This document shows, in pieces, positions 1,722 through 38,800 of a DNA stretch of 39,708 bases. Each line of letters opens with the position of its first letter. Within the stretch, counting starts at the first letter, position 1. This DNA comes from a virus. Taxonomy: Duplodnaviria > Caudoviricetes. Below the pieces are notes generated by a model. It was not told where the DNA came from. It ran no database searches and saw only the letters and a program-made list of their open reading frames with translations. A program made the translations under genes and the position numbers. Where the stretch lies: positions 1 through 39,708 of IMG/VR virus record IMGVR_UViG_3300037470_001284; one strand, given 5' to 3'.

Positions 1722-1759
1722 CAGCAAAAAAGGACTCCAAAGAGAATCCTTTTTTGCTG
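1722..1759 (-). terminator. Intrinsic terminator after tRNA-Val 3' fragment
   Basis: CAGCAAAAAAGGA...TCCTTTTTTGCTG inverted repeat. Confidence 0.7.
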
Positions 1760-1803
1760 GTGGGTGATGAGGGACTCGAACCCCCGACCCTCTCGGTGTA
1801 AAC
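1758..1803 (-). other. Prophage att site: 3' half of tRNA-Val(TAC)
   Basis: Minus strand GTTTACACCGAGAGGGTCGGGGGTTCGAGTCCCTCATCACCCACCA; no matching 5' half or D arm upstream; next to the integrases. Confidence 0.8.
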
Positions 1804-2010: not shown

Positions 2011-2985
2011 CTAACCCCGATACACGCTTCGCCGGAAGTATTTGTGGTAATTTTCCTCGATATGCCGGTCCGTCAGCTGCAAGTACCGCATCGTGGTGTC
2101 GATATTCCGATGCCCTAGCAGTTTTTGCAGGGTACGCACGTCCATTCCGGCCCGCAGCGCAGTAATTGCGTAGGAGTGGCGCAGCTGGTGGGGATGCATG
2201 CCCTCAAGTCCGGCTTCCGCAAAGCGGGCTTTTATGCGATCTCGCACCGCACACTTGCCGTATTTGAAGTTTGGATGGTTGTAGTGGTGCTGGATCGGCT
2301 GGAACAGGTACTCTTTGCCCGATCGGTACTCTTCGTGCATGTGGCCGGCCAGAGCATCAGCCAGACCGGAAGTGATAAACACCACCCGGTCCTGTTCGCC
2401 TTTGCCGCGCACCTGAACCTCTGAGCCTCGTACATCGTCGCAGGCCAAGCTGACCAGCTCACCGATGCGTACGCCACTCTCGTACAGCGTGGCGATCATC
2501 AGGCCATCCTGTTTGACTTTGCACTGACTGACGACTCCGGCGATTTCTTCGGCCGTAAAAGTCTCAATGCGCGGAGCTGGCACGGCCACCCTCCGCACCA
2601 TCGACCAGTCGAACTGCATCTCAACGTCATGGTAGGTCTGGCAAAACCAGAAGTACGAGCGCAGGATTTGCCGCTCAGCCTGAATTGTCGCCGGCTTTTT
2701 GTCTACGCCCCGGGCAATAAGGTGCTCGTCGACCATTTGAATGGTGAGCTTGCGTACATCACTTATGCCGAAGGTATCGAAGAAAGCCATCAGAATGTAC
2801 TTGCGGTTTTTGTACGTAGACACCGCCACGTTCTCGACCTTTTCGATATACACCAGATAGCGTTTCAGCAACTGGTGCGGATCCACTACCAGCGGTTGTT
2901 TGGTTTTTGGTTTGGTCACTTGGTACCGGGCTGCGACTGCCTTGGGGCCAAGCTTCGTTGGGTTCAACAAAACTGCGTTAGACAC
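2011..2985 (-). CDS. Tyrosine recombinase/integrase (XerC/D-like)
   Basis: SGVRIGE, VRGKG, HPHQLRHSYA, LGH...TTMRY catalytic residues. Confidence 0.93.
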   Translation of the reverse strand: MSNAVLLNPTKLGPKAVAARYQVTKPKTKQPLVVDPHQLLKRYLVYIEKVENVAVSTYKNRKYILMAFFDTFGISDVRKLTIQMVDEHLIARGVDKKPATIQAERQILRSYFWFCQTYHDVEMQFDWSMVRRVAVPAPRIETFTAEEIAGVVSQCKVKQDGLMIATLYESGVRIGELVSLACDDVRGSEVQVRGKGEQDRVVFITSGLADALAGHMHEEYRSGKEYLFQPIQHHYNHPNFKYGKCAVRDRIKARFAEAGLEGMHPHQLRHSYAITALRAGMDVRTLQKLLGHRNIDTTMRYLQLTDRHIEENYHKYFRRSVYRG

Positions 2986-3012: not shown

Positions 3013-3861
3013 TTAAGCCGTTACCGGCATATATTTTTGGTAAGTCGTACTGAGCTGGTTATCCATCAGGTGCAGATAGTTCTCGGTAATGGACACGCTG
3101 GAATGACCCATGAGCTCTTTTATCACCATCGTAGGCGCTCCGCGGTCCAATAGCGTCGTTCCAAACGAATGGCGAAGCGAATGCGGGTAGAAGTTTTTAT
3201 ACCCTGATCTGTAGAATGGCTGGCGCATGATGCGGCGGACTTGATCAATGCTCAACGGTTCACTAGGATTTATAGGCGACGGAAAGACATATGCTGTGAT
3301 GCCGTGCTCAGTGATCCATTTGTGCAGAAGCTTGCCAGTAGGTTGTGTAACGAACGTCTGGCGCAATTTTCTGCCTTTGCCGATTATCCTGATCGCGCAT
3401 CCGCATATGTTTTCCGCGTTTAGATTTGCTACCTCACTAATCCGCATTCCCGAGTCGAAGGCAAGGGATATCAGCAACCGCTCTCTGGTAGATGAACGGC
3501 GCTTGGCCCTGGCTATTTCATCAGGAGTAAAAAACACCCTCCGCGGCGGATCCTCCTCAACCTTGGGTATCAAGGCGATGCGGATTGCCAAAGGGTAGTC
3601 CATATCTTTCAAGAACCTGAGCATTGCGATGACGTGGGCTGTCCGGGTGTTTACGCTCCTGCCACTAACACCTCGCCGCAATTGCTCTTCGATCCAACTG
3701 TTGTAGCGTTTATTCGTTAGATCGCTAATCGTGTTTATTTTGGTCGCTTGCTTGAAAGTTTTTAGAATGTATTGTTTACTTCTCATCGTCTGAACTGTCA
3801 TCCGACGGTTGTAAAGGCAATAATTCAAGTACTCACCCACCTGTTTATCTATGGGCTTCAT
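3013..3861 (-). CDS. Tyrosine recombinase/integrase (XerC/D-like), second copy
   Basis: SGMRISE, IIGKG, PHSLRHSFG, MGH...ITENY; start re-called at MKPIDK. Confidence 0.93.
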   Translation of the reverse strand: MKPIDKQVGEYLNYCLYNRRMTVQTMRSKQYILKTFKQATKINTISDLTNKRYNSWIEEQLRRGVSGRSVNTRTAHVIAMLRFLKDMDYPLAIRIALIPKVEEDPPRRVFFTPDEIARAKRRSSTRERLLISLAFDSGMRISEVANLNAENICGCAIRIIGKGRKLRQTFVTQPTGKLLHKWITEHGITAYVFPSPINPSEPLSIDQVRRIMRQPFYRSGYKNFYPHSLRHSFGTTLLDRGAPTMVIKELMGHSSVSITENYLHLMDNQLSTTYQKYMPVTA

Positions 3862-4035
3862 GGTGAAAATTCCCTCTCTCCCCACCTTTTAAGACTGATA
3901 GACCCACCTTTTGATCTACCGAGCGCTCGAAAGAAAGGCATATAGCCATTTCACCAATTGGTAACCTTAACTATAATCTGTTAGGGTGATAGACCAAACC
4001 ATAACCAGCTTAGTTTTGCAAGTGAGCGTCGGCCT

Positions 4036-4209
4036 ATTTTTTTGTATTACTACTAAGTCTTATTTCTTATATATATATAGCGAGTGCCAATTCGCACTAT
4101 GGTTCAGAGGTCGGGCATCGTGCCAATTCGCACTATGAAAAAGGCGTTTACCACAGGTTTCTACACAGAAATCGGGCAGTTCTCCACAGAAAACATGACG
4201 TTATCCACA
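4036..4209. other. Putative replication origin: AT-rich tract, two 18-bp direct repeats, DnaA-box cluster
   Basis: GTGCCAATTCGCACTATG at 4084 and 4120; perfect TTATCCACA at 4201; variants at 4147, 4159, 4180; (TA)n tract at ~4068-4079. Confidence 0.6.
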
Positions 4210-4273
4210 AGCACTTTGCGATAGAAAAGCCCAGTCTGTTACAACTGGGCTAGAGATCCCCACCAAAAGCGAG

Positions 4274-4594
4274 CTAGAGTTTGGCAAAATCAATAACAAT
4301 CCGAAACCTTATAGCAGGCCTCAGCCCGCCACGGATCGGCTCAGTTTCGATTATCCCTTTCTTTTCCAATATCTCCCTGATGCGGCGCTGCTGATAACGG
4401 CTCAGGCCAGTGTCATTTTCAAGTTCGGTAGAGTCTTTGGTGATCCAGCCGTCAGTATCGGCATGGTGGCGCTCGTAAAACTGCAATTGAGCATAGAAAT
4501 AACCGGCCTGTACGTTGCCGTCAAGCATGCGTACAACCTCAGGAGAGACCGGAATGGCCTGCTTAGAGCGAAGCCTCACCCGTTCTCTACCCAT
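4274..4594 (-). CDS. Winged-helix DNA-binding protein resembling the N-terminus of phage replication initiators
   Basis: GWITKDSTELENDTGLSRYQQRRIREILEKKGII pattern; start re-called at MGRER. Confidence 0.6.
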   Translation of the reverse strand: MGRERVRLRSKQAIPVSPEVVRMLDGNVQAGYFYAQLQFYERHHADTDGWITKDSTELENDTGLSRYQQRRIREILEKKGIIETEPIRGGLRPAIRFRIVIDFAKL

Positions 4595-4690
4595 CAAATA
4601 CCCTCGCTTTAGTGAGGCTGTCCTAAAAGCAAGCAGCCTCAAACCATTTATTGGCTGAGACTGCTTTTATCACTCCGGAAAATTACTGTC

Positions 4691-4719
4691 AGTATAGCAT
4701 ATAAGAGATGGTTTTACAA
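4691..4719 (-). promoter_or_regulatory. Sigma70 promoter for the wHTH gene
   Basis: TTGTAA-17 bp-TATACT with TG extension, followed by a leader hairpin at ~4625-4668. Confidence 0.65.
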
Positions 4720-4729
4720 TATGCAGCCT

Positions 4730-4748
4730 AATAATCCTTACACGGCAT
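4730..4748 (+). repeat. Shufflon crossover site 1
   Basis: AATAATCCTTACACGGCAT. Confidence 0.9.
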
Positions 4749-5117
4749 TTAGCAGAAGCGTTCTTTAGGGGGCGTTTGCAAGCCGATACTACCGATTCTG
4801 TCTTTACCGGGTATATGCTTCAAATGGGCTGGGGACAGATTGCAGGTAATGGTGGTGCCGTAGTTTCTGAAACGGTTACATTTGACGAGGAATTTTCAGC
4901 CACTCCCGTAATAATAATGAGCTTAGTAGGTAAAGATTCGACTCCACCAGCTACAGTGATAGACGACCTTTCCGAAACCACTGCCGCAATTTACGTACCA
5001 CGAGCATTATCCCCTACGGCTTCAAACTTTTCAGCCGAAATAAGAATAGAAGGAGGTGCTTCGCTAAACGCCTCACACAACTATGGCTACTTTTGGCTGG
5101 CGATAGGAGCTGTCTAA
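4731..5117 (+). other. Silent C-terminal cassette A (128 aa; gp53/H-type-lectin-like tail fibre tip domain)
   Basis: Frame opens IILTRHLAEAFFRGRLQADT...; LQMGWG...VTFDEEFSATP...YFWLAIG; no convincing start of its own. Confidence 0.8.
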
Positions 5118-5154
5118 AGAACTAATGATGTATGAGGTGTAATGGTTTATCCCT

Positions 5155-5673
5155 CTAGTCGCACCCGAATACGATTATTCTCGAACCCGCAGCAAAGTTA
5201 TTTGCGCTCGTCATTGCGTCAATGTGTGTTATCTGCCCTGAGTCGGCCCATGTTCCCGAACCTCCATCGGGTAACGCTGGTGCAGACTCTACGCCAGTAG
5301 CTCCACGTATACACCTTGAAAATGTACGTTTGTTGATTGTCTCGAAGTTATTTATGTCTACGATGACATCCGCTATCGTTGTTGAAGCTAATAGGGCTTG
5401 AAGAAGTCGTTGCGGTTGTCCTAACACGGCTGGTGGTGTTAGCGTCAGTTGCATCAACACGCCATGCATAGTTATTGGTAGGTCAATGTGACCCGCCCCC
5501 GTGAGCTGCGCCACTATAACTATTATCAAGAATTTTACGGCCGGGAGGTCTGGTATTGACATAGTAGACTCGCTCCCAGGCGACGTATAGGTAGCTAGTT
5601 TCCGGAATGTGGAGTCGCTTGCTAACTTCCCCGCCTCTACTGAGCCGTCTGCATAATGCCTTGTAAGGATTAT
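5155..5673 (-). other. Silent C-terminal cassette B (172 aa, beta-rich)
   Basis: Frame opens IILTRHYADGSVEAGKLASD... and is continuous with ORF 5155-5562. Confidence 0.8.
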
Positions 5674-5674
5674 T
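5656..5674 (-). repeat. Shufflon crossover site 2
   Basis: AATAATCCTTACAAGGCAT (1 mismatch); 38/39 bp identity with the site 3 region. Confidence 0.88.
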
Positions 5675-5685
5675 CAGTGGCTCGC

Positions 5686-5738
5686 TGTTATAATAGGGGT
5701 AATGACGCGGTTGCATTGAAGCAGCCGTGTTTTTATTT
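5686..5738 (+). promoter_or_regulatory. Late-type promoter plus leader hairpin (copy 1)
   Basis: TGTTATAAT, then ACGCGGTTGC-ATTGAA-GCAGCCGTGT-TTTTATTT. Confidence 0.7.
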
Positions 5739-5749
5739 GAAAGGATCCT

Positions 5750-6358
5750 ATGGGTAGCCGAGATAGAGATGTTAGAAACTACGCAGTACCGGTTCGCGGT
5801 GCGATTTGGGGCCACAATTATAACGATCTGACTGAGAATAACCTGCAGGCTGGCTCCTGGACGTCGTTTAACGGCGGTGGCCATAGCGACATCGCACCGT
5901 TTTTCTTTGATTATCGAATAGGTTTTGGTAGTTTTGAAAGCCCGACGCCGGCCAAGATATGCCCGATCAGGATACTGCAGTCTCACTTTGGCGAAGTTGT
6001 GGAGTGCTTTGTTGATTTGCGCATGGTAGTTGCTAGCGGCGACTCAGATCTTACATTGAAACTAGCTGTAGGTCGCTTTGAGCCCGACAGTCTCAATAGG
6101 GTGATGAATTACACAAACGAAGAAATAAAACAGTCGTGGCGCATTATACGAGGTTCTGACACGCCTTTGAGTGTTGCCGACGGTGTCATTATGGCTGACG
6201 TTATAAATCTGCTGCCGGCCATTCCCAAATACGGCGACCCAGAGCACAGAGAAGACGCTTTTGTCCTGATCTTGGCATTCAATAAAGTGCCGACTATCAC
6301 CGGAGACTTTAAGTTTGAGTATCTGAATATCCATAACAGCGTAACAGGGGTACTATAA
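5750..6358 (+). CDS. Hypothetical protein (possible virion protein)
   Basis: 202-aa ORF with AAGGA RBS behind a late-type leader. Confidence 0.7.
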   Translation: MGSRDRDVRNYAVPVRGAIWGHNYNDLTENNLQAGSWTSFNGGGHSDIAPFFFDYRIGFGSFESPTPAKICPIRILQSHFGEVVECFVDLRMVVASGDSDLTLKLAVGRFEPDSLNRVMNYTNEEIKQSWRIIRGSDTPLSVADGVIMADVINLLPAIPKYGDPEHREDAFVLILAFNKVPTITGDFKFEYLNIHNSVTGVL

Positions 6359-6909
6359 TGGCGGAATCACGGCGACAAAAGGGATTCCCGGTAGGTCAGA
6401 TCAAAGGCTCAGATTGGGCTTGGGAGCCAGGCTGCGGCGGCGTCGGCGGCGATGGCGCCTGCATACCGGCGGCCGACTTCCGATACCTATACTGGGAAAT
6501 AAAAGTAAACCCATTCTCGCGCTTCAATAAGTTTTTACTGCTCCACAATGACTTCTTCCAGGTTCGGGCCGATGATGGCCCGGCAGAGGGCTGCGACCAC
6601 ACATCAGGCACTCAGGTTGCCTTTGATTTGCTGCTGAGTTACAAGGCACCTGTAAATGATGTGCTCGATCCTGAAATGGTCACTGGCGGCATAACAGTGC
6701 CAAATGACGTTACGTTGCCTTACGATCTAGAGTTTTTGGGGTCCGAAGTCGAGGGCGAAAACATGATACCGCAGCCGATCAGTTCTGACTACGAGCGGAA
6801 AATATGGGCGGTGGTTGATATGTATCAGACAGGCCACATGATAAACGGCCTGCCGGCTAACTCTAGAGTAATGGATACGAGTGATATTGACTGGGAGGGT
6901 CACCCATGA
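6358..6909 (+). CDS. Hypothetical protein
   Basis: 183 aa, translationally coupled (TAATG). Confidence 0.7.
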   Translation: MAESRRQKGFPVGQIKGSDWAWEPGCGGVGGDGACIPAADFRYLYWEIKVNPFSRFNKFLLLHNDFFQVRADDGPAEGCDHTSGTQVAFDLLLSYKAPVNDVLDPEMVTGGITVPNDVTLPYDLEFLGSEVEGENMIPQPISSDYERKIWAVVDMYQTGHMINGLPANSRVMDTSDIDWEGHP

Positions 6910-7418
6910 GCAGAACACGACATCAAGAGTTTACTTATCAGTATAAAAACACCAGTGTTAATAACGCCGGTTTCTGTGGTTTTAACCCACGAAACCGTAT
7001 TTACATGCCAGCAGAATTGATAGAAATCAAGAGTTTATGGGTTCATATTTGGGCGCAGTATGACGTTTCTACTCCAGTAGAGCGCAGGCGATTAGACTGG
7101 GTGGGTGGTCAACCTCAAGTAAAAACAGTGCCAAACCCAGACTTCCCAGGATTTACCACGCTCGCGCCAGCTGAGGAGCAGCCAAATATGATATACATTG
7201 GCCAAGAAGCCGACGAGAACCGATACGTTGATGTGAAGGTCGACCTGACACGTATCCTCGACAAAATACCGGTTAATGAAGGAGGATTCGCTTTTTCACA
7301 ACCGTTTATTGATGTCCATGTCGTCAATAATGGCCTGTTAGCCGCATCAGAATATAGCGCAGGAGTAATTTTATTATGGAAAACAGACTTCACTTATACT
7401 ACCCGGGGAATACAGTAA
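6906..7418 (+). CDS. Hypothetical protein
   Basis: 170 aa, ATGA overlap with the previous gene. Confidence 0.7.
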   Translation: MSRTRHQEFTYQYKNTSVNNAGFCGFNPRNRIYMPAELIEIKSLWVHIWAQYDVSTPVERRRLDWVGGQPQVKTVPNPDFPGFTTLAPAEEQPNMIYIGQEADENRYVDVKVDLTRILDKIPVNEGGFAFSQPFIDVHVVNNGLLAASEYSAGVILLWKTDFTYTTRGIQ

Positions 7419-7486
7419 AAGCGCCACATCCAGGCAGGAAGCGAAAGCGTAAGATTTCACGCCAGCCAAAGGAGCGGCCACTGTAC

Positions 7487-7792
7487 ATGACCAAAGCCTT
7501 GCCACACGTTAAAAAGACCGTGGCAACTAGTAAATGCGTATGGTGTGATTATCCTTTTGGGCAATATATGGTGGTTTGTCTGCACTGTTTCAACTGCCAG
7601 TACTGCGGCTTTTTGTCTAAAGGCAATATGGGTCACTGTATGAACTGCGATAACCAGGTTAACGACGAAATAGCCAACACGGGCCAAGTCTTGAGAGCTC
7701 AAAAACAGGCCGAAGGCTTGCGTACTGGCAAGATGCGACCCCACTTCTATAAAAAAGGTCACAGAAAGCGGCGTGTATCTAGAATCCGTTGA
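7487..7792 (+). CDS. Basic zinc-ribbon protein (four CxxC); start uncertain
   Basis: CVWC, CLHC, CQYC, CMNC; AAGGAG upstream; stop codon abuts site 3. Confidence 0.6.
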   Translation: MTKALPHVKKTVATSKCVWCDYPFGQYMVVCLHCFNCQYCGFLSKGNMGHCMNCDNQVNDEIANTGQVLRAQKQAEGLRTGKMRPHFYKKGHRKRRVSRIR

Positions 7793-7810
7793 ATAATCCT
7801 TACACGGCAT
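7792..7810 (+). repeat. Shufflon crossover site 3
   Basis: AATAATCCTTACACGGCAT. Confidence 0.9.
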
Positions 7811-8218
7811 TATGCAGACGGCTCAGTAATCCCCGCTAAAAGAAGTGGCGGGGTCGCTATACACATATTATCAGGAGCCTCTGACCTCAATACTACGGGC
7901 GAGAAGGAGGTTACAGGGGCAGGTTTCGCCCCTTTATCAGTCGAGTTTTTCGTACTTCCAACCGCCTCAACAACTGCGTCAATCTTAGGTTTTGGCGCTA
8001 TGACTGCTAGTGCTCAATTCTATGTAACTGGTGCTTCCTCTTCCGCCCCAGCTTTCGGTCGTAACAGCTCTAGCTCTTCGTGTATCGGATTTGTAATACC
8101 GGGTTCTTCAACCCCAACCCTACTTTGCTCACGTGTCAGCATGGACGAAGATGGATTCACTATAAATGTAGACTCAGCCTCAAGTTCTTTCAATGTGGCT
8201 TGTGTAATGCGCCGCTAA
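7793..8218 (+). other. Silent C-terminal cassette C (141 aa, beta-rich)
   Basis: Frame opens IILTRHYADGSVIPAKRSGG...TTGEKEVTGAGFAP... and is continuous with ORF 8000-8218. Confidence 0.8.
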
Positions 8219-8410
8219 AGGACTAACTGTGACAGAACTATCCGAACTGGCCCCAAACGTAGCAATCGTAGCCTTTTTTTGGGTTTTTTGTGGAAGGCTG
8301 GCACAAAGTTAGTAGAGCCATTGTGCTCGTGCTAAAATTAGAGTAAACGTGTGTTCTGTGCCGGGCCATTCAGGTGCTCCCGGCGCTGAGCACATGTTGT
8401 TGTAAATCTG

Positions 8411-8469
8411 TGATATAATAAGCATTAGCGAACGCGGTTACGGAAGTAGCCGCGTTTTTTATTTGCAAA
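8411..8469 (+). promoter_or_regulatory. Late-type promoter plus leader hairpin (copy 2, lysis operon)
   Basis: TGATATAAT, then AACGCGGTTAC-GGAA-GTAGCCGCGTT-TTTT. Confidence 0.75.
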
Positions 8470-8504
8470 TATAAATTAATTAATAGGGTACAAAGCAGTG
8501 AGGG

Positions 8505-8813
8505 ATGGCCAAAGAAGACATGGAACACACGACTCCAACCAAGGATGAAATCAAGCTTATCATCGACAACTCGCTTCTCGAACTTGAGAAGCGTATGACT
8601 AAAAGCCTTGGCGAATCGTTATCTGAGCAAAACAGGATGTATATGGACAACATTCTGTCGCTATCTGAAAGGGTTACAAAGATTGAAAGCCGGCAAGACC
8701 GGCAAGACGAAAGAATTAAAGGTTTCAAGGGTCTGATCGCAACGATTGCGGCCGCATCGAGCGTAGTAGCAGGTTTTTTAGGGTTTTTAATAAGCCAAAT
8801 AACTCAAAGATAA
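8505..8813 (+). CDS. Holin-like/coiled-coil protein with C-terminal transmembrane helix
   Basis: Coiled coil followed by GLIATIAAASSVVAGFLGFLI; directly upstream of the endolysin. Confidence 0.6.
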   Translation: MAKEDMEHTTPTKDEIKLIIDNSLLELEKRMTKSLGESLSEQNRMYMDNILSLSERVTKIESRQDRQDERIKGFKGLIATIAAASSVVAGFLGFLISQITQR

Positions 8814-8823
8814 GGAGGCACCT

Positions 8824-9831
8824 ATGATCAAGGGAATAGACATATCAAGACACCAAGGCGCAGTTAATCACGACGCCATAAAACGTGATGTAGACTTCGC
8901 TATTATCCGCGCCGGCTATGGAGGCGGTGGCTTAGATGATCAGTTCACGCGTAATCGTAACGGACTAAGGTCCCGTGGCGTACCTCTAGGATTTTACTTT
9001 TTCGCTTACCCTGGGCGTAGCAGCGGACGCCAGCAAGCTGAGGAATTTCACCGTATCGTTGGTAATCTAGCTCCCGGTGAGTTCATAGCCTTGGACATCG
9101 AGAACGAAACTACCTATGGCCGCCGCTTAGTGCCAAGCGATGTACAATGGTCGCTTGAATTCTTGCAACGCTGCGAACAGCTATTTGGTGTCAAGCCACT
9201 GGTCTACATGGACGGTGGTGTAAAAAGTAGCTTCAACTGGCAGTCAGTGGTAAATGGCAACTATGGACTTTGGATAGCCCACTGGGGTCGGAATAACGGA
9301 AATGTCGATAGCGAGCCAAATGCAGCACCTTGGCCATTCTGGGCAATTCACCAGTACACGAGTAAGGCTAACTTGGGCGGTATTCACCTGGTTGACGCTA
9401 ACCTATTCAACGGAACTGTGATTCAGCTTAAGAAGTATGGCAAGCAAGGCGGCAGTGCTCCGGCTCCTAAGCCTGCGCCGAAACCACAGCCCAGCAAGCC
9501 AGCTGGTGGCACGTATACAGTCAAAAAGGGCGAAACACTCAGTAGCATTGCTCCGCGCTTAGGAACGACTTGGCAAGCCTTATATGCGCTCAACAAGTCA
9601 GTAATTGGTGCTGACCCCGACTTGATCAAGCCCGGGCAGGTCCTGCGGCTGTCGGGCGGCCCTGCTCCTTCGATTAGTGATCAATACTATGTTGTGAAAA
9701 AGGGCGATAAGCTGAGCAAGATAGGTCCGCGGTTTGGCACGCCTTGGCGCACTATCTACAACTGGAATAAATCAGTAATTGGCTCGGACCCTAACAAGAT
9801 ATTTCCAGGCCAAAGATTAAGAGTTAAGTAA
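8824..9831 (+). CDS. Endolysin: GH25 muramidase with two LysM domains
   Basis: GIDISRHQG, ALDIE, WIAHW, HQYTS, VDAN; P-rich linker; YTVKKGETLSSIA and YVVKKGDKLSKI. Confidence 0.93.
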   Translation: MIKGIDISRHQGAVNHDAIKRDVDFAIIRAGYGGGGLDDQFTRNRNGLRSRGVPLGFYFFAYPGRSSGRQQAEEFHRIVGNLAPGEFIALDIENETTYGRRLVPSDVQWSLEFLQRCEQLFGVKPLVYMDGGVKSSFNWQSVVNGNYGLWIAHWGRNNGNVDSEPNAAPWPFWAIHQYTSKANLGGIHLVDANLFNGTVIQLKKYGKQGGSAPAPKPAPKPQPSKPAGGTYTVKKGETLSSIAPRLGTTWQALYALNKSVIGADPDLIKPGQVLRLSGGPAPSISDQYYVVKKGDKLSKIGPRFGTPWRTIYNWNKSVIGSDPNKIFPGQRLRVK

Positions 9832-9841
9832 GGAGGAAGTA

Positions 9842-10078
9842 ATGTCAGTTTCACAAGTATCAGCAGAACAATGGAAGAAGGTACTAAAGGCGCTCTACTA
9901 CAGCGCAGGATCCGGCTTTTCAGCCGGTTTTATGCTTGCTTTGGCTGGTGTAATCCAATCAGGTGAAATAGACCCGATACAAGCGCTGCAAACTGCCGCA
10001 GTTGTTGGCGGTGCTGTCGGTGCTCTTAACAGCCTTGCGGTCACTATCAAGCAACTGTTCACCCCAGCAGAGGAGTAA
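9842..10078 (+). CDS. Putative holin (two hydrophobic segments)
   Basis: 78-aa hydrophobic protein after the endolysin, AAGGAGG RBS. Confidence 0.65.
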   Translation: MSVSQVSAEQWKKVLKALYYSAGSGFSAGFMLALAGVIQSGEIDPIQALQTAAVVGGAVGALNSLAVTIKQLFTPAEE

Positions 10079-10095
10079 AAGGATGGCGCCGGCTT

Positions 10096-10254
10096 ATGCG
10101 TAAGACGAAATTCTGGAAAGGTTTTGTTACAGGCATAATAGTCGGCGCTATCGCAATGTACGTAGGTTTGTGGCTGCATGCTGGCTATAAGCTGACCACT
10201 ATCTGGCCCAAAGTATGCCCGAGCTGCTACGAGGAGCCGATCGATGGAAATTAG
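10096..10254 (+). CDS. Small membrane protein (52 aa)
   Basis: Hand translation MRKTKFWKGFVTGIIVGAIAMYVGLWL...CPSC; below the ORF-track cutoff. Confidence 0.5.
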   Translation: MRKTKFWKGFVTGIIVGAIAMYVGLWLHAGYKLTTIWPKVCPSCYEEPIDGN

Positions 10255-10459
10255 CCCAAACCAACATACTCAGCCTATGACCGGCAAACGCCGCATCGAA
10301 TTCACGATGGCGATGATAGATGAGGTACTTGCCGAAGAATCTATAAAGCTAGAGGAACTGAAGCAAGTCGTCGAAGAAAACGGCACTGAGCTAACCGAGG
10401 AACAGCTGATATTTGGCTGGTTTGCGAACTTTAGGCAGGCTAACCCGGATGTCCATTGA
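10244..10459 (+). CDS. Hypothetical protein
   Basis: 71 aa, GAGGAG RBS. Confidence 0.55.
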   Translation: MEISPNQHTQPMTGKRRIEFTMAMIDEVLAEESIKLEELKQVVEENGTELTEEQLIFGWFANFRQANPDVH

Positions 10460-10542
10460 GCGGCTGTGTTTGAAATGTCATAGGCGGATAAAGCCAGGCA
10501 GCAAGCTTAAAATCTATTGCCAGTGTAGTGGCGTCATTAGTC

Positions 10543-11121
10543 CTAAGCACCAATAAAAGCAATAGCAATAAAAGTATTACTAGCACCATTGCCATCCGTA
10601 CTAGCCGAGGAGGTTGCCGTAGCCTTTATCTCTTCGCCTGCGTTCAAAAAAACAATATCGGCAGTGCTAATCCTTGGGTCGCTTCCAGCGCTAGAACCTA
10701 CGGCTGTGGCAAGGGCAACGGATACGCCATTGACACAAATTCGTAAAATTATCTGTTCAGCATCGCCAAGATTAGACGAACTAAGGTTGGCGTTAACGTG
10801 GTAATAGCCCGTTACTGGTGCTGTGAATCTCCCAGTAGACGTATTGAAGTTGCCACCTAAGTCAAAATCCTCTGTATCAAAGACGATGTCAGCTTCCGTG
10901 CTATATGTAAATGCACCAGCCCTGTGCGCCCTACAGGCTATTGTTGCCGCCAGCTTCTCCGAACTCACCTCGCTATCACCGATATGCCGTGTAAGGATTA
11001 TTCCATCGCCTAACGCCTCGCCAGTGTTAAATCCGGCTTCGTTGGCCGTCATTTGATTGAGCTTCGTAGCGGTGATCAGCTCGTCCGTTACCCAAGTTAC
11101 TTCAACAAATGTGTCTGGCAT
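10543..11121 (-). CDS. Expressed shufflon gene: 40-aa constant N-terminus plus C1q-like cassette D (putative receptor-binding/tail fibre protein)
   Basis: IVFDTEDFDLGGNFNTSTGRFTAPVTGYYHV C1q signature; TWVTDELITATKLNQM phage tail N-terminal motif; internal IILTRH site. Confidence 0.85.
   Translation of the reverse strand: MPDTFVEVTWVTDELITATKLNQMTANEAGFNTGEALGDGIILTRHIGDSEVSSEKLAATIACRAHRAGAFTYSTEADIVFDTEDFDLGGNFNTSTGRFTAPVTGYYHVNANLSSSNLGDAEQIILRICVNGVSVALATAVGSSAGSDPRISTADIVFLNAGEEIKATATSSASTDGNGASNTFIAIAFIGA
10984..11002 (-). repeat. Shufflon crossover site 4 (expression site)
   Basis: AATAATCCTTACACGGCAT on the minus strand at codons 40-46. Confidence 0.9.
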
Positions 11122-11663
11122 TATTTGACCCTCACCACTTCAAACGATTCAAACCGCTCAACCGGTCGGCCGTCTTTATCGACGTATGATCCGTAATTAG
11201 CTTTCTTCCTGGCACTGGCCTGGGATATCCGCACCTGTGATTCAAGCTGTGACCGCTCAAATGGGCTCAAGGATCGTAGGGGCGGGTCAGCTTTTACAAT
11301 CTGCTTGGATCCTTTGGCCACAACCATCTTCCGTTCTGGTACAACACCCTTCTCAAAAGCACTCAGTCGAGTGTCATTGCCGCAAGCGCACTCGTAGCCA
11401 ACCATCTTGTGGCGGTTGTCATTAACATCAAGGCGCCGCCTAGTGGTGAAGAACTGGTCCTGATAGCCAAAAATGTTTCGTGAGCCGCTTTCACGATCGA
11501 TAGTAGCGTGTTTTTGCTGCGCAGGCGCTACCTCAACGGCAATAACGTGGTTGTTTTTAAGACAACGCACAAAATATACCTCTGGGTACTGGCTACCATA
11601 GAACTCAGCCATGGCTTTGAGTTCAGATTCAGATTGCTTAGGTGGCTTGGCTCTTACTGGCAT
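11121..11663 (-). CDS. Hypothetical protein, possible Zn-binding; start re-called at MPVRAK
   Basis: AAGGAAG RBS; CLKNNH...CACG; stop coupled to the RBP start. Confidence 0.65.
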   Translation of the reverse strand: MPVRAKPPKQSESELKAMAEFYGSQYPEVYFVRCLKNNHVIAVEVAPAQQKHATIDRESGSRNIFGYQDQFFTTRRRLDVNDNRHKMVGYECACGNDTRLSAFEKGVVPERKMVVAKGSKQIVKADPPLRSLSPFERSQLESQVRISQASARKKANYGSYVDKDGRPVERFESFEVVRVK

Positions 11664-11671
11664 AATCTTCC

Positions 11672-11728
11672 TTTGCAAATAAAAAACGCGGCTACTTCCG
11701 TAACCGCGTTCGTTGCCCATATTATACC
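11672..11728 (-). promoter_or_regulatory. Late-type promoter plus leader hairpin (copy 3)
   Basis: GGTATAAT; 11672-11712 is a perfect 41-bp inverted copy of 8429-8469. Confidence 0.75.
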
Positions 11729-11800
11729 TCACGCGCTGAATATAGACAAAAACACTTAACCTTTACTTAACTGGTGTTTTTTGTTATAATGCACCTTGAA

Positions 11801-12511
11801 ATGATTAACAAAACGCGGTCTTGGTTCAAAACAAAGAGTTTGTATGCAAAAATCGGAATTTCGGCAGCTGCAATGGTGCTTATATCAACACCGGTGTTTG
11901 TTGCCGCTATGAGTGCGCAGAACAATCCTGATCAACATCAGTCGGTTGTCAATGAAAGCACTGCAAAAGAAACGGAAAACACCTCTAACGATCAAGAGGA
12001 AGTCACTATAAACGAGTCTTCACCAGTGGTAAATGAAACAGAGACAAATGATGAAACACAAAGCGAGAGCACTGGTGAAGGCTCACAAAGCCAGTCAACT
12101 CCGCAAACCGAGCCGCCAGTACCTACTTACACCGATACCTATCCTTGGACTGGCAGCTGCGGTGGCATCGATACCTGGGGCCTTACAAAGTGCCAAAGTA
12201 CCAGCTATACGGCTTGGAAGGTAAACGAAAAGTATGGCAGTATGCTGCCTTGGGGTATGACCAGCCCGAACGGCGATGCAAAGAATTGGCCGACTCACGC
12301 CGACAATTCCAGTATTCCGCGCGGCACTACGCCTAAAAAGTACTCCGTAGCTGTGAAATTCAATCAGCCAAGTGGCCTGACAGCGTGGGTAGAAGCTGTT
12401 GACGGCAATAAAATCACGGTCAGTCTGTACAACTGGGGCAGCAACCAGGCCTACAAGCTATTAGAGAACGTCGACGCTTCATACTTCGACACCTACATCT
12501 ACTTCAACTAA
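11801..12511 (+). CDS. Membrane-anchored CHAP-like protein with substituted catalytic residues (moron)
   Basis: N-terminal TM, acidic S/T/E linker, QSTSYTAWKV...GDAKNW...GLTAWVE...SLYNW; own TGTTATAAT. Confidence 0.8.
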   Translation: MINKTRSWFKTKSLYAKIGISAAAMVLISTPVFVAAMSAQNNPDQHQSVVNESTAKETENTSNDQEEVTINESSPVVNETETNDETQSESTGEGSQSQSTPQTEPPVPTYTDTYPWTGSCGGIDTWGLTKCQSTSYTAWKVNEKYGSMLPWGMTSPNGDAKNWPTHADNSSIPRGTTPKKYSVAVKFNQPSGLTAWVEAVDGNKITVSLYNWGSNQAYKLLENVDASYFDTYIYFN

Positions 12512-18027: not shown

Positions 18028-18119
18028 TTTGCAAATAAAAAAACGGCTCCCTGCGAGCCGTGTATTAAATAGAAAAACGCGGCTGCAAGACAACCGCGTT
18101 TATTGCCCTAATTATAGCA
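18028..18119 (-). promoter_or_regulatory. Late-type promoter plus two tandem leader hairpins (copy 4, tail operon)
   Basis: TGCTATAAT; AACGCGGTTG-TCTTG-CAGCCGCGTTTTT; ACGGCTCGCAGGGAGCCGTTTTTTT. Confidence 0.75.
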
Positions 18120-18167
18120 CAAAAGCTTCGTGATATAATCTAGAGTAATTTGAAAGGAGGCGAGAGG

Positions 18168-23461: not shown

Positions 23462-23545
23462 AAAAACGGCTACGTCCAGCAGCCGTTTTTACCAATAAAA
23501 ATAACGCGGCTGCATGTAACCGCGTTTGTTAAGGGTATTATAGCA
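23462..23545 (-). promoter_or_regulatory. Late-type promoter plus two tandem leader hairpins (copy 5, head operon)
   Basis: TGCTATAAT; AACGCGGTTAC-AT-GCAGCCGCGTTATTTTT; AAAAACGGCTG...TAGCCGTTTTT. Confidence 0.75.
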
Positions 23546-23570
23546 CAAGCATTGGAAAACTTGTAAAGCG

Positions 23571-26318
23571 CTATATCAAAGGGCCATCAACGCCGCCGGC
23601 AACATCGGGCAAGCCGGTAACGTCCGGCAGAGCGGTATCAATAGCGCCGCTGACGATTCTGCGAATCAATACCCATATACAACGGCAGCGGAAGTGTATA
23701 GGCGTCTTCCACTTGGTGCGTTCCCACTCTTCGCGGGTAACAACCTTGCCGTCCAGGTCCCGGCAGATCGGGCAGATGCGATCGTCCAAGAGTCCCGAGT
23801 ACTGGAACAGGTCGTCATCCTTAGCTTCGCGCTCAAACACGTCGTTGCGGCCGTTATTAACGCCTTGAGAGATGATAGAACTGGCAGTTAAGCCAAGTTT
23901 ATCTGCAATCCAAGTCCCGAGCAGGGCGGCAAGCAGCTGCCTAAACCGCTGTTCCGGCGTCAGTTCTTCTTCGTCATCCTCTTCTGCCAACTGCCGGGTG
24001 CGTTTCGCCTTCAGAATCTCAGCCCGGATCAGATTTTTCAGGTCGTCTTGCTGCTTATTGACGATAAAGTTTGTTAATTCCTGCATACCGGCCAGTTCTT
24101 TCTTGCCGGTCGCCGGCGCCTTGACCTTCAACTCGTCAGCTGCGCCGGTTTTAGCGTAGTTATAGGCGTTTTTGATGGCGTTTATCAGTGTCTGTTCGTA
24201 TTTTTTAGGTAATTCATAGGTGAAGGAGTCCGCGTCGCTTTTGGCGGCTCTATCAACTATGGCCGTTATGTCTTTTTCTATAATTGGCTGCGCGGTATCA
24301 ATGAAATCCTGCTCCATTTTGTTCATGCGCTTTTCGATATCGGCCAGCCTGACAATCTTTTCCGCCTCGGTAAGCGGCCGCCACCATTGCTGGTCGTTCA
24401 ACTCTTTACCGTCGCCATCTTTTGGCTTGTCGCCGTAATTTACGCCAGTTACCTTAACAGTCTTGCCGTTATAGTGCTCAGACAGTGCCTTAACCCATTT
24501 ATCAATGACGGCTTGGTCGTTTTTGACATAGGCGAGAGTAATGTGTGGCTGGTAATCAGTATAGGTATTGACATGCGGTAGTTTGGTAAGCTCATCGTGT
24601 GCCTTCAAAAGCTCTGGTGTTGGCTTGACGTGGGCCACAATCGGCACCGCGTCGTCACCACTGTCAAACGAACCGACGCGCTCAGTGGTAACTTCTGATA
24701 TATCAATGTCTTCAAGCAGCTGGTCCACCTGGTCTTTGAACTCATGTGCGCTCTTCATAAGGCCAAACAGCAGCGTTACATGGGGTACTTCTTCGGCGGG
24801 AACATTGCTATAATCCATTTCGGTGTCGCTCAGATCGGCCTTAGCATTATCAACGTACTTCAGAACATCAAGCCGCTCGACGTCGAGCATGACGCAGCCA
24901 AGTTGTGACGTATCGATGCCCAGCGATTCAAGCACAGCGTTGTCGCTCAGAAATTTATCGCCGTTTCCGGCACGACCTCCGTTTTTCTTATCATTGGCCC
25001 TTCTAAACTCTTTATTTTTATCTTCGGCTTCCTTTTTCAAACGTTTTTCGCGTTCTTTTTTGAGCTTAGCGAGGTCGATTTCCAAGCGTCCGGCCATGGA
25101 CTTTTCAATGCCTTCGGCCATTTCGTTGCTGACGCGGTCTTTCTTCACTAGCTGCATAAATGCTTCTTTGATAGCTTTAACTGCATCACTGGTCAGATCG
25201 TCAAAGTGGAACTCAGGGTAATGCTGGTCCGGGAAGTTCAAATCAATTAGGTCGGCGATAAGGTACTGGTTGATATGTTCCTCGATTTTAGTCATAAGGC
25301 CTTTTAAGGCGATCATAAACATGTCTGACTGGTCAGCGCTCAGCGCGTAGGACCCGACATTACTGCTCTTGCCCTGTGAGCCAAGCAGCAGGAATGGTGC
25401 CAAGAACACCCGGGCCATTTCCGAGTTCTGTCGCTCAATCGAAGCGCCCATATCCATACGCCCATCAGACGTAAGCGGTTCGACATCCCAGCCATAGGGG
25501 ATGGAAGCCACTGGCCGGACTTCTCCCAGCTTAGCGAGTGCGACCAACGCCTTATTGCGAGCAGATTTACCTTCTTTGCCAAGAGCCCCGCTCTCAGTGC
25601 GTTTCAGAAGTTTTGGAGTGATTGCGTAAGCCTGTGCGGCGATGCTATCTAGGTACTCCAGCCGCCGTTTTTTGTCGTATTTCACATAAGCCGATCGGAA
25701 CGCACTGCGGCCATAAAGGAAACTGCGGGATTTGCCATAGGTGAATAAGAATGTCTTGTAGGCGGCAATCGTTACGTCTTTGTATTCGCCACCATAATTG
25801 ACACGCTGCACGGCGCCGCCATAACCGCCATCCTTGCTGCGCTTCAGCGTGATACCTACGCTGTCGCGGTTAGCGAGCTTTTTATAAACATATTTGCCGT
25901 CCTCGATCTTATAGACCTTTTCAAAAAGCTGGAATCCATCCACCGTAGAAAGCAGCAATTGGTCCAGAAACAGACTAAACGGAGTGTCCATACCGCCTTT
26001 GTGCGGCGGTTCCAGCAAGTTCTTGCGCGTAAAGTTAGCTTGGGTTTCGTCGGTATCGTCTTTGTCAGCGTTAATGTGGTGGGTGGTGGCCAGAATAGGC
26101 AGTGTAACGATATTAAACAGCGCCTCAGCCGTGGTATCGGTATCAATCATCTTGCGATAGTTTTCGATTGAGACCTTGTCAGCGCGAGCCTCTTCGTCTT
26201 TGAAGCCGGTAAACACTACATCGCCGGCAACACCAATCTCACTGGTCAACCCAGCTTTTGAGCTTTGTTTGTCTGCCGGTTCTTTGCTGCGTCGTTTGAA
26301 GATATCTAGTATTGCCAT
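23571..26318 (-). CDS. Portal (Mu gp29/DUF935-like) fused to a 2H phosphoesterase (Acb1-like) and a MuF head-morphogenesis domain
   Basis: GFQLFEKVY, GSYALS..QSDMF, INQYLI..LIDLNF; PHVTL and PHITL; DDRICPIC..LDG, PIHFRCRC. Confidence 0.88.
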   Translation of the reverse strand: MAILDIFKRRSKEPADKQSSKAGLTSEIGVAGDVVFTGFKDEEARADKVSIENYRKMIDTDTTAEALFNIVTLPILATTHHINADKDDTDETQANFTRKNLLEPPHKGGMDTPFSLFLDQLLLSTVDGFQLFEKVYKIEDGKYVYKKLANRDSVGITLKRSKDGGYGGAVQRVNYGGEYKDVTIAAYKTFLFTYGKSRSFLYGRSAFRSAYVKYDKKRRLEYLDSIAAQAYAITPKLLKRTESGALGKEGKSARNKALVALAKLGEVRPVASIPYGWDVEPLTSDGRMDMGASIERQNSEMARVFLAPFLLLGSQGKSSNVGSYALSADQSDMFMIALKGLMTKIEEHINQYLIADLIDLNFPDQHYPEFHFDDLTSDAVKAIKEAFMQLVKKDRVSNEMAEGIEKSMAGRLEIDLAKLKKEREKRLKKEAEDKNKEFRRANDKKNGGRAGNGDKFLSDNAVLESLGIDTSQLGCVMLDVERLDVLKYVDNAKADLSDTEMDYSNVPAEEVPHVTLLFGLMKSAHEFKDQVDQLLEDIDISEVTTERVGSFDSGDDAVPIVAHVKPTPELLKAHDELTKLPHVNTYTDYQPHITLAYVKNDQAVIDKWVKALSEHYNGKTVKVTGVNYGDKPKDGDGKELNDQQWWRPLTEAEKIVRLADIEKRMNKMEQDFIDTAQPIIEKDITAIVDRAAKSDADSFTYELPKKYEQTLINAIKNAYNYAKTGAADELKVKAPATGKKELAGMQELTNFIVNKQQDDLKNLIRAEILKAKRTRQLAEEDDEEELTPEQRFRQLLAALLGTWIADKLGLTASSIISQGVNNGRNDVFEREAKDDDLFQYSGLLDDRICPICRDLDGKVVTREEWERTKWKTPIHFRCRCIWVLIRRIVSGAIDTALPDVTGLPDVAGGVDGPLI

Positions 26319-26334
26319 GGTTTCCGATCCAATT

Positions 26335-26383
26335 AAAAAACGGCTACGAGAAACGTAACCGCGTTAATACTGCCATTATAACG
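26335..26383 (-). promoter_or_regulatory. Late-type promoter plus leader hairpin (copy 6, portal)
   Basis: GTTATAAT; ACGCGGTTACG-TTTCT-CGTAGCCGTTTTTT. Confidence 0.7.
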
Positions 26384-26401
26384 CAAAAGGGCCCTAAACT
26401 G

Positions 26402-28508: not shown

Positions 28509-28527
28509 TTCCTTTGCCCCTTTCGAC

Positions 28528-28581
28528 AATAAAAAACACGGCTGCCTTGCAGACAACCGTGTTCCTTGGTCTAATTATACC
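28528..28581 (-). promoter_or_regulatory. Late-type promoter plus leader hairpin (copy 7, terminase)
   Basis: GGTATAAT; AACACGGTTGTC-TGCAA-GGCAGCCGTGTT-TTTT. Confidence 0.75.
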
Positions 28582-35830: not shown

Positions 35831-36476
35831 TTATGACCTCCTCCTCTACGTAAACCCCACCAATGTTAAAGGCCATCCTTATAGCGTTGGCTTCGGCGCA
35901 TTTGGCCAGCATTACCCGTGGCATAACCTTCCAGTTTCTAATCGGCTGGCCATCCTTGGTTTTCTGGAACTCCTCTAAATAGGCCGTGTATTCGCCGACC
36001 TTTACGGCGTCGTTCTTGTCGCTGAATCGTCCATAGACCTCTACTGTTGCGGTAGTGATTTTCCCATCATCTCTTTCCTCAAAAACCGCCTTGCCGGTAT
36101 AGGCATAGGTTGGGTTTTTCGACCTTCGAGCAAGCGTGCGCAGACCGTGGATACTGACAATAGGTTCAAGTTTCTCGATCCACTGACCGGCAACGTTTTG
36201 GCGCTGGTAAACCGCGTAAATTTCTTTCCTAAGAGGATTGAGGCCGTATTGCTGACAAACAAGCAGGAAATACGCTAGATCTTCCGGCGGACGTAATACA
36301 CCCATTTTGTCGACACCTATCAGATTTCGGTGGATATTGCCAAGCAACCGTTCTTTGTTCTGACCCGCACCCCACTCGCCGATATAGCTGGTTATCTTGC
36401 TATAAGCGCTCTGTGCGGCAGTCTTCCTCGATTTTTGTGTTATCTCGCTTGTGGGTTTTTTATTATCGTTATCCAT
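35814..36476 (-). CDS. Single-strand annealing recombinase (RecT/Bet family)
   Basis: CQQYGLNPLRKEIY, SIHGLR..ARRS, W..MPRVMLAKCAEANAIRMAF. Confidence 0.88.
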   Translation of the reverse strand: MDNDNKKPTSEITQKSRKTAAQSAYSKITSYIGEWGAGQNKERLLGNIHRNLIGVDKMGVLRPPEDLAYFLLVCQQYGLNPLRKEIYAVYQRQNVAGQWIEKLEPIVSIHGLRTLARRSKNPTYAYTGKAVFEERDDGKITTATVEVYGRFSDKNDAVKVGEYTAYLEEFQKTKDGQPIRNWKVMPRVMLAKCAEANAIRMAFNIGGVYVEEEVINGQEA

Positions 36477-38724: not shown

Positions 38725-38800
38725 TGGTTGCGGGTGCCGGGATCGAACCGACCTTGGAGGGCTTATGAGACCCTTGAGTTCACCAGAACTCTAACCCGAC
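38725..38800 (-). tRNA. Phage tRNA with CAT anticodon (Met/fMet-like, imperfect acceptor stem)
   Basis: GTCGGGTTAGAGTTCTGGTGAACTC-A-AGGGT-CTCATAA-GCCCT...GTCGGTTCGATCCCGGC-ACCCGCAACCA, 76 nt. Confidence 0.8.

Follow-up and report, generated by a model that had tools for sequence, protein, structure and literature searches.

A four-site shufflon structure at a likely virion tip gene of a probable Saccharibacteria prophage

What would allow a single phage gene to end in four unrelated ways? The question is raised by a 39,708-nucleotide (nt) Caudoviricetes record, IMGVR_UViG_3300037470_001284 (hereafter the window, i.e., the whole stretch of DNA analyzed), in which a 19-bp repeat lies inside gene 10543–11121 and recurs, in both orientations, ahead of three further open frames. 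An earlier reading (the original prediction) had proposed a four-site shufflon swapping the C-terminal domain of a phage tail or receptor-binding protein. As a structure, the locus is almost certainly a shufflon. We assign a probability of roughly 0.8 to the full mechanism, in which inversion driven by int2, a nearby tyrosine recombinase, would swap four tips on a likely tail adhesin whose first 46 residues stay constant: the sites, frames and layout, along with alternative arrangements in relatives, support an inversion system, from which we infer its individual steps. The features at its center are as follows.

4721..4748, plus strand: site A (11-bp left arm, 6-bp spacer, 11-bp right arm; shared 19-mer 4730–4748)
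4731..5117, plus strand: cassette A, silent, 128 codons, gp53/H-type-lectin-like tip
5155..5673, minus strand: cassette B, silent, 172 codons, unnamed viral domain family
5656..5683, minus strand: site B (shared 19-mer 5656–5674, one mismatch; in-frame TGA directly before the site)
7783..7810, plus strand: site C (shared 19-mer 7792–7810; in-frame TGA directly before the site)
7793..8218, plus strand: cassette C, silent, 141 codons, no family match
10543..10983, minus strand: cassette D, the tip now joined to the gene, C1q domain (PF00386 above cut-off; PHROG 746, minor tail protein)
10984..11011, minus strand: site D (shared 19-mer 10984–11002), the expression site within gene 10543–11121
10984..11121, minus strand: constant N-terminal 46 codons, with 49–61% identical homologues fused to unrelated tips in loci L001, L002, L004 and L091
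11121..11731, minus strand: conserved upstream 180-amino-acid (aa) gene and promoter-like element

All four announced copies of the 19-mer, including the one with a mismatch at site B, are present. About 0.01 copies would be expected by chance, four were reached in 0 of 100 shuffles, and a search allowing up to three mismatches found no further copy elsewhere in the window; an exact search of viral contigs gave 0 matches. The placement within the gene also held: the repeat begins at the last base of codon 40 and encodes IILTRH as codons 41–46, and the site B mismatch, read from the sequence, is synonymous (CGG to AGG). Identity between sites, which includes third codon positions, ends sharply at the 5′ edge of the 19-mer, upstream of which the flanks vary. 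Among 154 registers, the best dyad was 11-6-11 with an asymmetric spacer and 27 of 44 matching arm pairs, a score reached in 3 of 1000 trials when left flanks were swapped for random window DNA. Relative to the orthologous locus L091, the site region keeps the same codon at 9 of 10 same-residue positions, versus 6 of 14 upstream in the same gene and 143 of 361, 66 of 158 and 45 of 114 in three other genes. Such codon identity, set against ~40% elsewhere, points to selection on the DNA itself.

Behind each site the IILTRH frame stays open, over 128 codons in cassette A, 172 in B, 141 in C and 152 in D, which yields the four products of 168, 212, 181 and 192 aa that had been anticipated; the other two frames close within 0–63 codons. 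With 8.2% of random window positions open for at least 128 codons, three out of three silent frames would be met with a probability of ~6e-4. The silent cassettes had been said to lack convincing starts. The first in-frame start of cassette C would leave only 72 aa; cassette B, however, does have a possible start, an ATG at codon 38 with GGAG ~10 nt upstream, from which an Atlas gene call also begins.

The four cassettes are only 15–22% identical to each other, and two of the folds originally proposed for them stood: the C1q domain of D and the gp53/lectin-like tip of A. The AlphaFold model of cassette A (21 sequences; predicted local distance difference test score, pLDDT, 74) retrieved H-type lectins, phage tailspikes and pyocin fibres in Foldseek at E-values of 2e-4 to 8e-4, and 13 of its 21 aligned members match PF21882. 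Cassette B falls in an unnamed viral family (Atlas feature score 0.95; template-modelling score ~0.8 to viral hypothetical proteins, among them both stand-alone and longer ones), with no Pfam or PHROG match and no homologue in GenBank phages or the collected loci. An overlapping protein-like open stretch in another frame runs through its middle (5380–5500, minus strand), where a local frame disturbance is possible. Cassette C could not be placed: it has no homologue in the collected loci, and its single-sequence model (pLDDT 33) is uninformative for fold. The tip gene follows the tape measure gene, a 114-aa gene and a 533-aa tail protein gene; from this position and from the tip folds, its product is likely a tail adhesin, with a head or collar fibre as a possible alternative. 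The 180-aa gene and its element likely form the transcription unit of the tip gene. Used alone as a query, the constant region recovered only itself, and an alignment search of genome contigs with the 180-aa gene gave nothing.

The convergent pairing of sites and cassettes (A with B, C with D) was described correctly, except that tips C and D are 2.3 kb apart with a lysis cassette between them and that four genes lie between sites B and C. Relatives indicate how this layout may have come about. In L001, L002 and L004 (L003 seems to represent the phage of L004 a second time, and L008 is a fragment), the hub gene, the 180-aa gene, the constant region with a single tip, and the four genes follow each other on one strand, with lysis-type genes after them. 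The tip differs in each of these loci, none of which has inverted in-frame repeats, and the two complete genomes among them (G402 and G403) have no PF00589 or PF00239 match. A single inversion between the outer sites converts the window to this order, which places its present state, judged by synteny, one inversion from the ancestral gene order. The orthologous prophage L091, which sits in a Saccharibacteria-type genome and encodes head, tube and hub proteins 65–75% identical to those of the window, carries six sites whose 11-bp right arm is identical and whose spacer has one or two changes. Its six in-frame tips (107–160 codons; one matching PF21882 above cut-off, one C1q) form three convergent pairs, and an in-frame TGA directly precedes three of the five silent sites. 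There, the lysis genes and then the four-gene block both run forward, i.e., a third arrangement, two inversions from the window state. A distant relative, L007, has two complete tandem tip genes (10429–11558) with their own N-terminal parts and no sites, a non-inverting route to two tips.

Next, we examined 40 viral loci for arrangement. Three sites, different in sequence from those of the window, were found in 25 of these loci; 24 cover all four arrangements (10, 8, 5 and 1 loci), and the cassettes of the remaining locus are divergent. Of 12 loci that form a second group, 2 have the constant-gene block forward and 8 reversed, and 2 do not cover it. Between L034 and L036 (88–94% identical), an inversion ends inside the site and carries an endolysin and a holin. 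The int2 homologues of these lineages are 37–44% identical, and their sites take up the corresponding place in the peptide. The rearrangement breakpoints of relatives fall in the sites. Multi-site inversion swapping a C-terminal domain, the core of the original prediction, is supported by synteny, by six-site L091 and by rearranged near-identical relatives. Two other lineages show a variant in which the constant gene and its upstream gene invert between fixed tips (L037:6300–8100, L046, and L015/L018 versus L093:7050–8400). Two-site tip switches with KIDF/SIDF-type junction peptides occur in L185–L229 (~3700–7000) and L070:4887–5598, and lie 0.7–6 kb upstream of other tyrosine recombinases.

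Which enzyme would turn these segments? Tail-fibre tips of Mu, P1 and p15B are switched by inversion through the serine recombinases Gin, Cin and Min. No serine recombinase (PF00239) was found among the 53 window proteins covered by the family scan, the right end of the prophage lying outside the window, nor in the complete relatives G407 and G408. The window instead encodes two tyrosine recombinases at the far end of the locus.

1758..1803, minus strand: tRNA-Val-like 3′ half, likely the prophage attachment site (read from the sequence)
2011..2985, minus strand: int1, 324-aa tyrosine recombinase beside the attachment site (PF00589, full catalytic set)
3013..3861, minus strand: int2, 282-aa tyrosine recombinase (PF00589 plus N-terminal SAM-like domain, full catalytic set)
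4274..4582, minus strand: small helix-turn-helix, replication-initiator-like gene between the shufflon and int2 (PHROG 428/9773), with 49–51% identical homologues in the same place in L091, L011 and L012

The gene for int2 lies 0.87 kb from site A and 27 nt from int1, on the same strand; the two proteins are 26% identical, and beyond the catalytic Tyr int2 has 20 residues and int1 has 23. The recombinase beside the six-site shufflon of L091 is 60% identical to int2, and both belong to a seven-row clade (support 96) in which all rows bear shufflons (window, L091, L011/L012, L034/L036/L078). The tree was built by a quick method from 64 rows of our choosing, with three host Xer rows left out as too short and shufflon labels from our own detector. 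With this crude detector, 48 of 110 int2-family loci showed shufflon-like repeats upstream, in a redundant set that includes the window and some chance matches. By comparison, int1 groups with L177–L179, which have no shufflon, its eight closest loci show no such repeats, and among 70 loci fetched with the int1 alignment the 12 positives are all only 24–29% identical to int1. As a single query int2 returned no locus, and a plasmid search with it gave generic integrases only. From these associations, int2 is probably the invertase, and int1 is the likelier integrase.

It could also be that the shufflon is real and that int1, an int1/int2 pair working as XerC/XerD do, or a host Xer enzyme drives it, int2 being only an old integrase. 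The site has the shape of dif, whose layout is 11-6-11, the two recombinase genes adjoin on one strand, and most int2-family loci have no detected shufflon; in addition, G407, G408 and the G001 prophage have a single tyrosine recombinase, which could be needed for integration. Yet L091 has the same arm without an int1 orthologue, the close int1 loci lack such repeats, site sequences differ between phage lineages in a way hard to explain by one host enzyme, and int2 has stayed intact although int1 now adjoins the attachment site. We therefore regard a driver other than int2 as unlikely.

With int2 as the driver, we propose that the enzyme contacts both arms flanking the asymmetric 6-bp spacer (the right one 11 bp long and conserved, the left one only loosely symmetric to it), exchanges strands inside the shared 19 bp, and flips the DNA between oppositely oriented sites, which would join one of the four unrelated tips to the constant 46 residues. 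Tips C and A would each be one inversion away, whereas B, in a correction to the original prediction, would take two; 16 arrangements would be reachable. The lysis cassette and the four-gene block would turn with their segments and could stay expressible through their own late-promoter-like elements. The expressed tip would then set the surface sugar or protein bound by the virion, and tip swapping may switch host range, by analogy with FR-phi, in which the isoform sets infectivity and only one isoform infected (PMC13418256). Orientation is balanced (two sites plus, two minus), and direct pairs are also present, D with B and C with A. Recombination between these would delete the lysis genes or the four-gene block, so that the enzyme must avoid deletion.

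Several observations weigh against this mechanism. Most int2-family loci have no detected shufflon, and a place beside the tips is also the usual place of an integrase. The rearranged near-identical pairs come from other lineages, with different site sequences and recombinases only 37–44% identical to int2. In other lineages, the constant regions have matches among head or virion proteins besides minor tail proteins, which makes the tail location less certain. Searches found no second genome of the window's phage. The int2 branch is long (0.79 vs 0.13 for L091), which could mean relaxed selection. Finally, an alternative orientation, which is seen in relatives, did not appear in the contigs of the likely source run (X1): single contigs at a depth of 5.5–6.5 span all four sites and join them as in the window, although contigs drop rare forms. 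This check used the contigs of two runs, the second of which (X2) gave scattered 150–220-nt pieces only. One candidate joint, 8469 to 11600, was rejected as the product of a 41-bp promoter repeat and the cut of the stretch.

The long int2 branch and the lack of alternative joints, together with the odd middle of cassette B, would fit a system that was once active and is now frozen in the prophage with the D state fixed. We consider this quite improbable: all three silent frames are open, the sites are identical at 18–19 of 19 positions, both recombinases keep complete catalytic sets, and contigs at ~6× cannot reveal minority forms. That the repeats are merely remnants of tips gained by homologous or illegitimate recombination, and the cassettes stand-alone genes or pseudogenes with no programmed inversion, would fit a repeat that encodes a conserved peptide, the ATG and possible ribosome-binding site of cassette B with its 140–162-aa stand-alone Atlas neighbors, and the site-free tandem tip genes of L007, but is very improbable given the sharp 5′ edge of identity through third codon positions, the balanced orientations, the recurrence of the layout in L091 with relatives' breakpoints in the sites, and the mere 72 aa that cassette C could encode from its own start.

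The DNA that would be inverted holds more than tips. Passenger genes and promoter-like elements, which the original prediction missed, lie inside it.

5686..5743, plus strand: promoter-like element (TATAAT, hairpin, T-run) before the four-gene block
5750..7792, plus strand: passenger block of four conserved genes (202, 183, 170 and 138 aa) between sites B and C
8409..8469, plus strand: promoter-like element before the lysis genes, 41 bp identical to 11672–11712
8505..10459, plus strand: passenger lysis cassette (putative holin, GH25-LysM endolysin, putative second holin, 71-aa gene)

Together, the passenger genes interleaved with the cassettes amount to 4.4 kb, and both blocks are oriented against the main late direction. 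Homologues of the four genes (35–57% identical) stand in the same order in L001, L002, L004 and L091; their proteins gave no family match above cut-off, no named family and no solved relative, and a profile of the 202-aa protein run against 401 genomes of the class found G001 and one weak match. The endolysin matches PF01183, PF01476 and PHROG 291, while the holins have no family match and are labeled as putative from position and hydrophobic stretches only. Seven copies of the element occur in the window, each preceding a late gene block: 5686–5743 and 8409–8469 on the plus strand, and 11672–11731, 18062–18121, 23488–23547, 26329–26385 and 28527–28581 on the minus strand. Each consists of a TATAAT box, a gap of ~8–10 nt, a 9–12-pair hairpin and a T-run, a structure that may represent a late promoter with an attenuator, or an operator. 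It has no Rfam match, and only this repeated element is taken as evidence, a generic promoter scan having performed at chance level (11 found, 10.4 expected). L091 has three copies, and its lysis and four-gene blocks are each preceded by one, as in the window. No copy was found in L001, L002, L004 or L007, an absence that dates nothing; the tip gene of L001 and L002 is directly adjoined by the 202-aa gene, which leaves no space for an element.

Several shufflon-bearing relatives raise the question of how the invertase relates to the integrase. The complete genomes G407 and G408 have one PF00589 gene and no PF00239 gene, of the two PF00589 genes of G001 one belongs to the prophage and the other to a different contig, and the recombinase of L091 and L034 is followed by a tRNA-Thr sequence. 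In such relatives, either the sole recombinase would do both jobs or a host enzyme would do one. Searches found no other recombinase in G407, G408 or the L091 prophage. A tentative and rather doubtful reading holds that one armless tyrosine recombinase serves as integrase and shufflon invertase in Saccharibacteria phages, that the window captures a split of these jobs, and that lysis and late genes have been absorbed as self-promoted modules reordered with each flip. If so, int1, gained with its tRNA-Val site, would have taken over integration, and int2 would have been kept as a dedicated, fast-diverging invertase. In four phages, attachment regions resembled shufflon sites no more than shuffles did (in the best cases, 23 and 35 of 300 shuffles were as good), so that a dual-function enzyme would need to recognize two dissimilar targets. 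A match to TTACAC within the tRNA-Val site was rejected, as it is the anticodon loop; the tRNA-Val label itself is a reading of that loop and was not called by ARAGORN or Rfam. A degenerate second copy of the tRNA 3′ end lies 170 nt away, at 1588–1616, perhaps as the scar of an earlier integration.

How far does the locus resemble known systems? The comparisons below draw on the accessible parts of the cited papers. The R64 pilV shufflon, to which the original prediction had likened it, provides a partial match: the R64 sfx site also has a 19-bp conserved part (7-bp core and 12-bp right arm) with a variable left arm, the sites occur in both orientations, a C-terminal domain is swapped, and the recombinase is distal (PMC11852207). 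The 7+12 reading thus stands for the window, but R64 diversifies a pilus adhesin, the window a phage virion protein with a best dyad of 11-6-11, and Rci has an extra C-terminal domain, which neither int2 nor int1 has room for after its catalytic Tyr. As armless enzymes without the Rci domain, the window's recombinases make Rin of Bifidobacterium prophages (PMC6109161), rather than R64 Rci, Gin or Cin, the closest known precedent; the comparison is one of features, the site sequences being unrelated. Rin and the Eggerthella lenta clade 1 system (PMC8778435) share with the window a constant N-terminal part, dissimilar C-terminal cassettes (~6–30% identity, against 15–22% here), a short asymmetric in-frame repeat inside the gene, and an armless XerD-like tyrosine recombinase at the far end alongside a separate second recombinase. 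Like Rin, int2 is Xer-sized, and H-type-lectin tips are common to Eggerthella and the window. Differences are that the Rin and Eggerthella repeats are 11 or 8 bp long, versus an unrelated 19 bp within an 11-6-11 dyad here, that the constant part of Rin is 168 aa rather than 46 aa, and that Rin cassettes are in tandem whereas those of the window are interleaved with promoter-bearing passengers including lysis genes. In the window, two passenger blocks and a small gene also stand between the constant gene and the recombinase. The hosts also differ, the window's being probably Saccharibacteria, and several relatives of the window have a single recombinase. Multi-cassette inversion of a tail-fibre C-terminus is likewise known from the BV01-like Phocaeicola phage shufflon (PMC13596623, a preprint) and from FR-phi, which uses a gin recombinase (PMC13418256); these loci are compact (1.7 kb for BV01-like), and the parts accessible describe no passenger operons.

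Hence the principle, tip swapping by a tyrosine recombinase, is not new, Rin having been published (PMC6109161). Literature searches, in which subscription journals were mostly uncovered, found nothing relevant on shufflons or inversion in Saccharibacteria or Patescibacteria, and no title or abstract on passenger lysis genes in shufflons or on a dual integrase–invertase. Many phages of Saccharibacteria seem to carry the system; little is known about the phage receptors of these tiny epibionts, and the loci offer a library of adhesin domains for probing the surfaces of Saccharibacteria or of their host bacteria. The Rin study raised the question of what keeps an armless tyrosine recombinase from deleting DNA while it inverts it (PMC6109161). 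The passenger lysis layout makes this question directly testable with the 282-aa enzyme, which lacks the extra domain of Rci, and single-recombinase genomes suggest how invertases may arise from integrases.

The window as a whole (39.7 kb) carries terminase, Mu-like portal, protease, capsid, tail tube and tape measure genes on the minus strand, and is probably prophage DNA from a Saccharibacteria (TM7) host, as its homologues suggest: when genomes were searched with the int2 alignment, 68 of the 80 best loci bore Saccharibacteria or Nanosyncoccus in their titles. Left of the tRNA-Val-like sequence, tRNA-Cys and tRNA-Leu genes probably mark host DNA; the Rfam scan of the window found two tRNAs and nothing else, and a tRNA-Met-like gene at 38725–38800 was predicted by ARAGORN only. 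The portal (23571–26318, minus strand) is fused to a 2H-phosphoesterase domain (2′-5′ RNA ligase family) and a Mu F domain, the former with a weak match, below cut-off (E-value 2e-4), to Acb1, directed against the cyclic oligonucleotide-based antiphage signaling system (anti-CBASS); the L091 orthologue is shorter (731 aa), and part of the fused region seems to be absent from it. Adjoining the RecT gene, 36476–38278 (minus strand) encodes a 600-aa protein in which a PD-(D/E)XK nuclease is fused to an FtsK ATPase. Finally, a CHAP-domain protein with an N-terminal hydrophobic anchor is encoded at 11774–12511 on the plus strand, opposite to the direction of the tail genes; it is absent from L001, L002 and L004 and is kept in L091 (42% identity).

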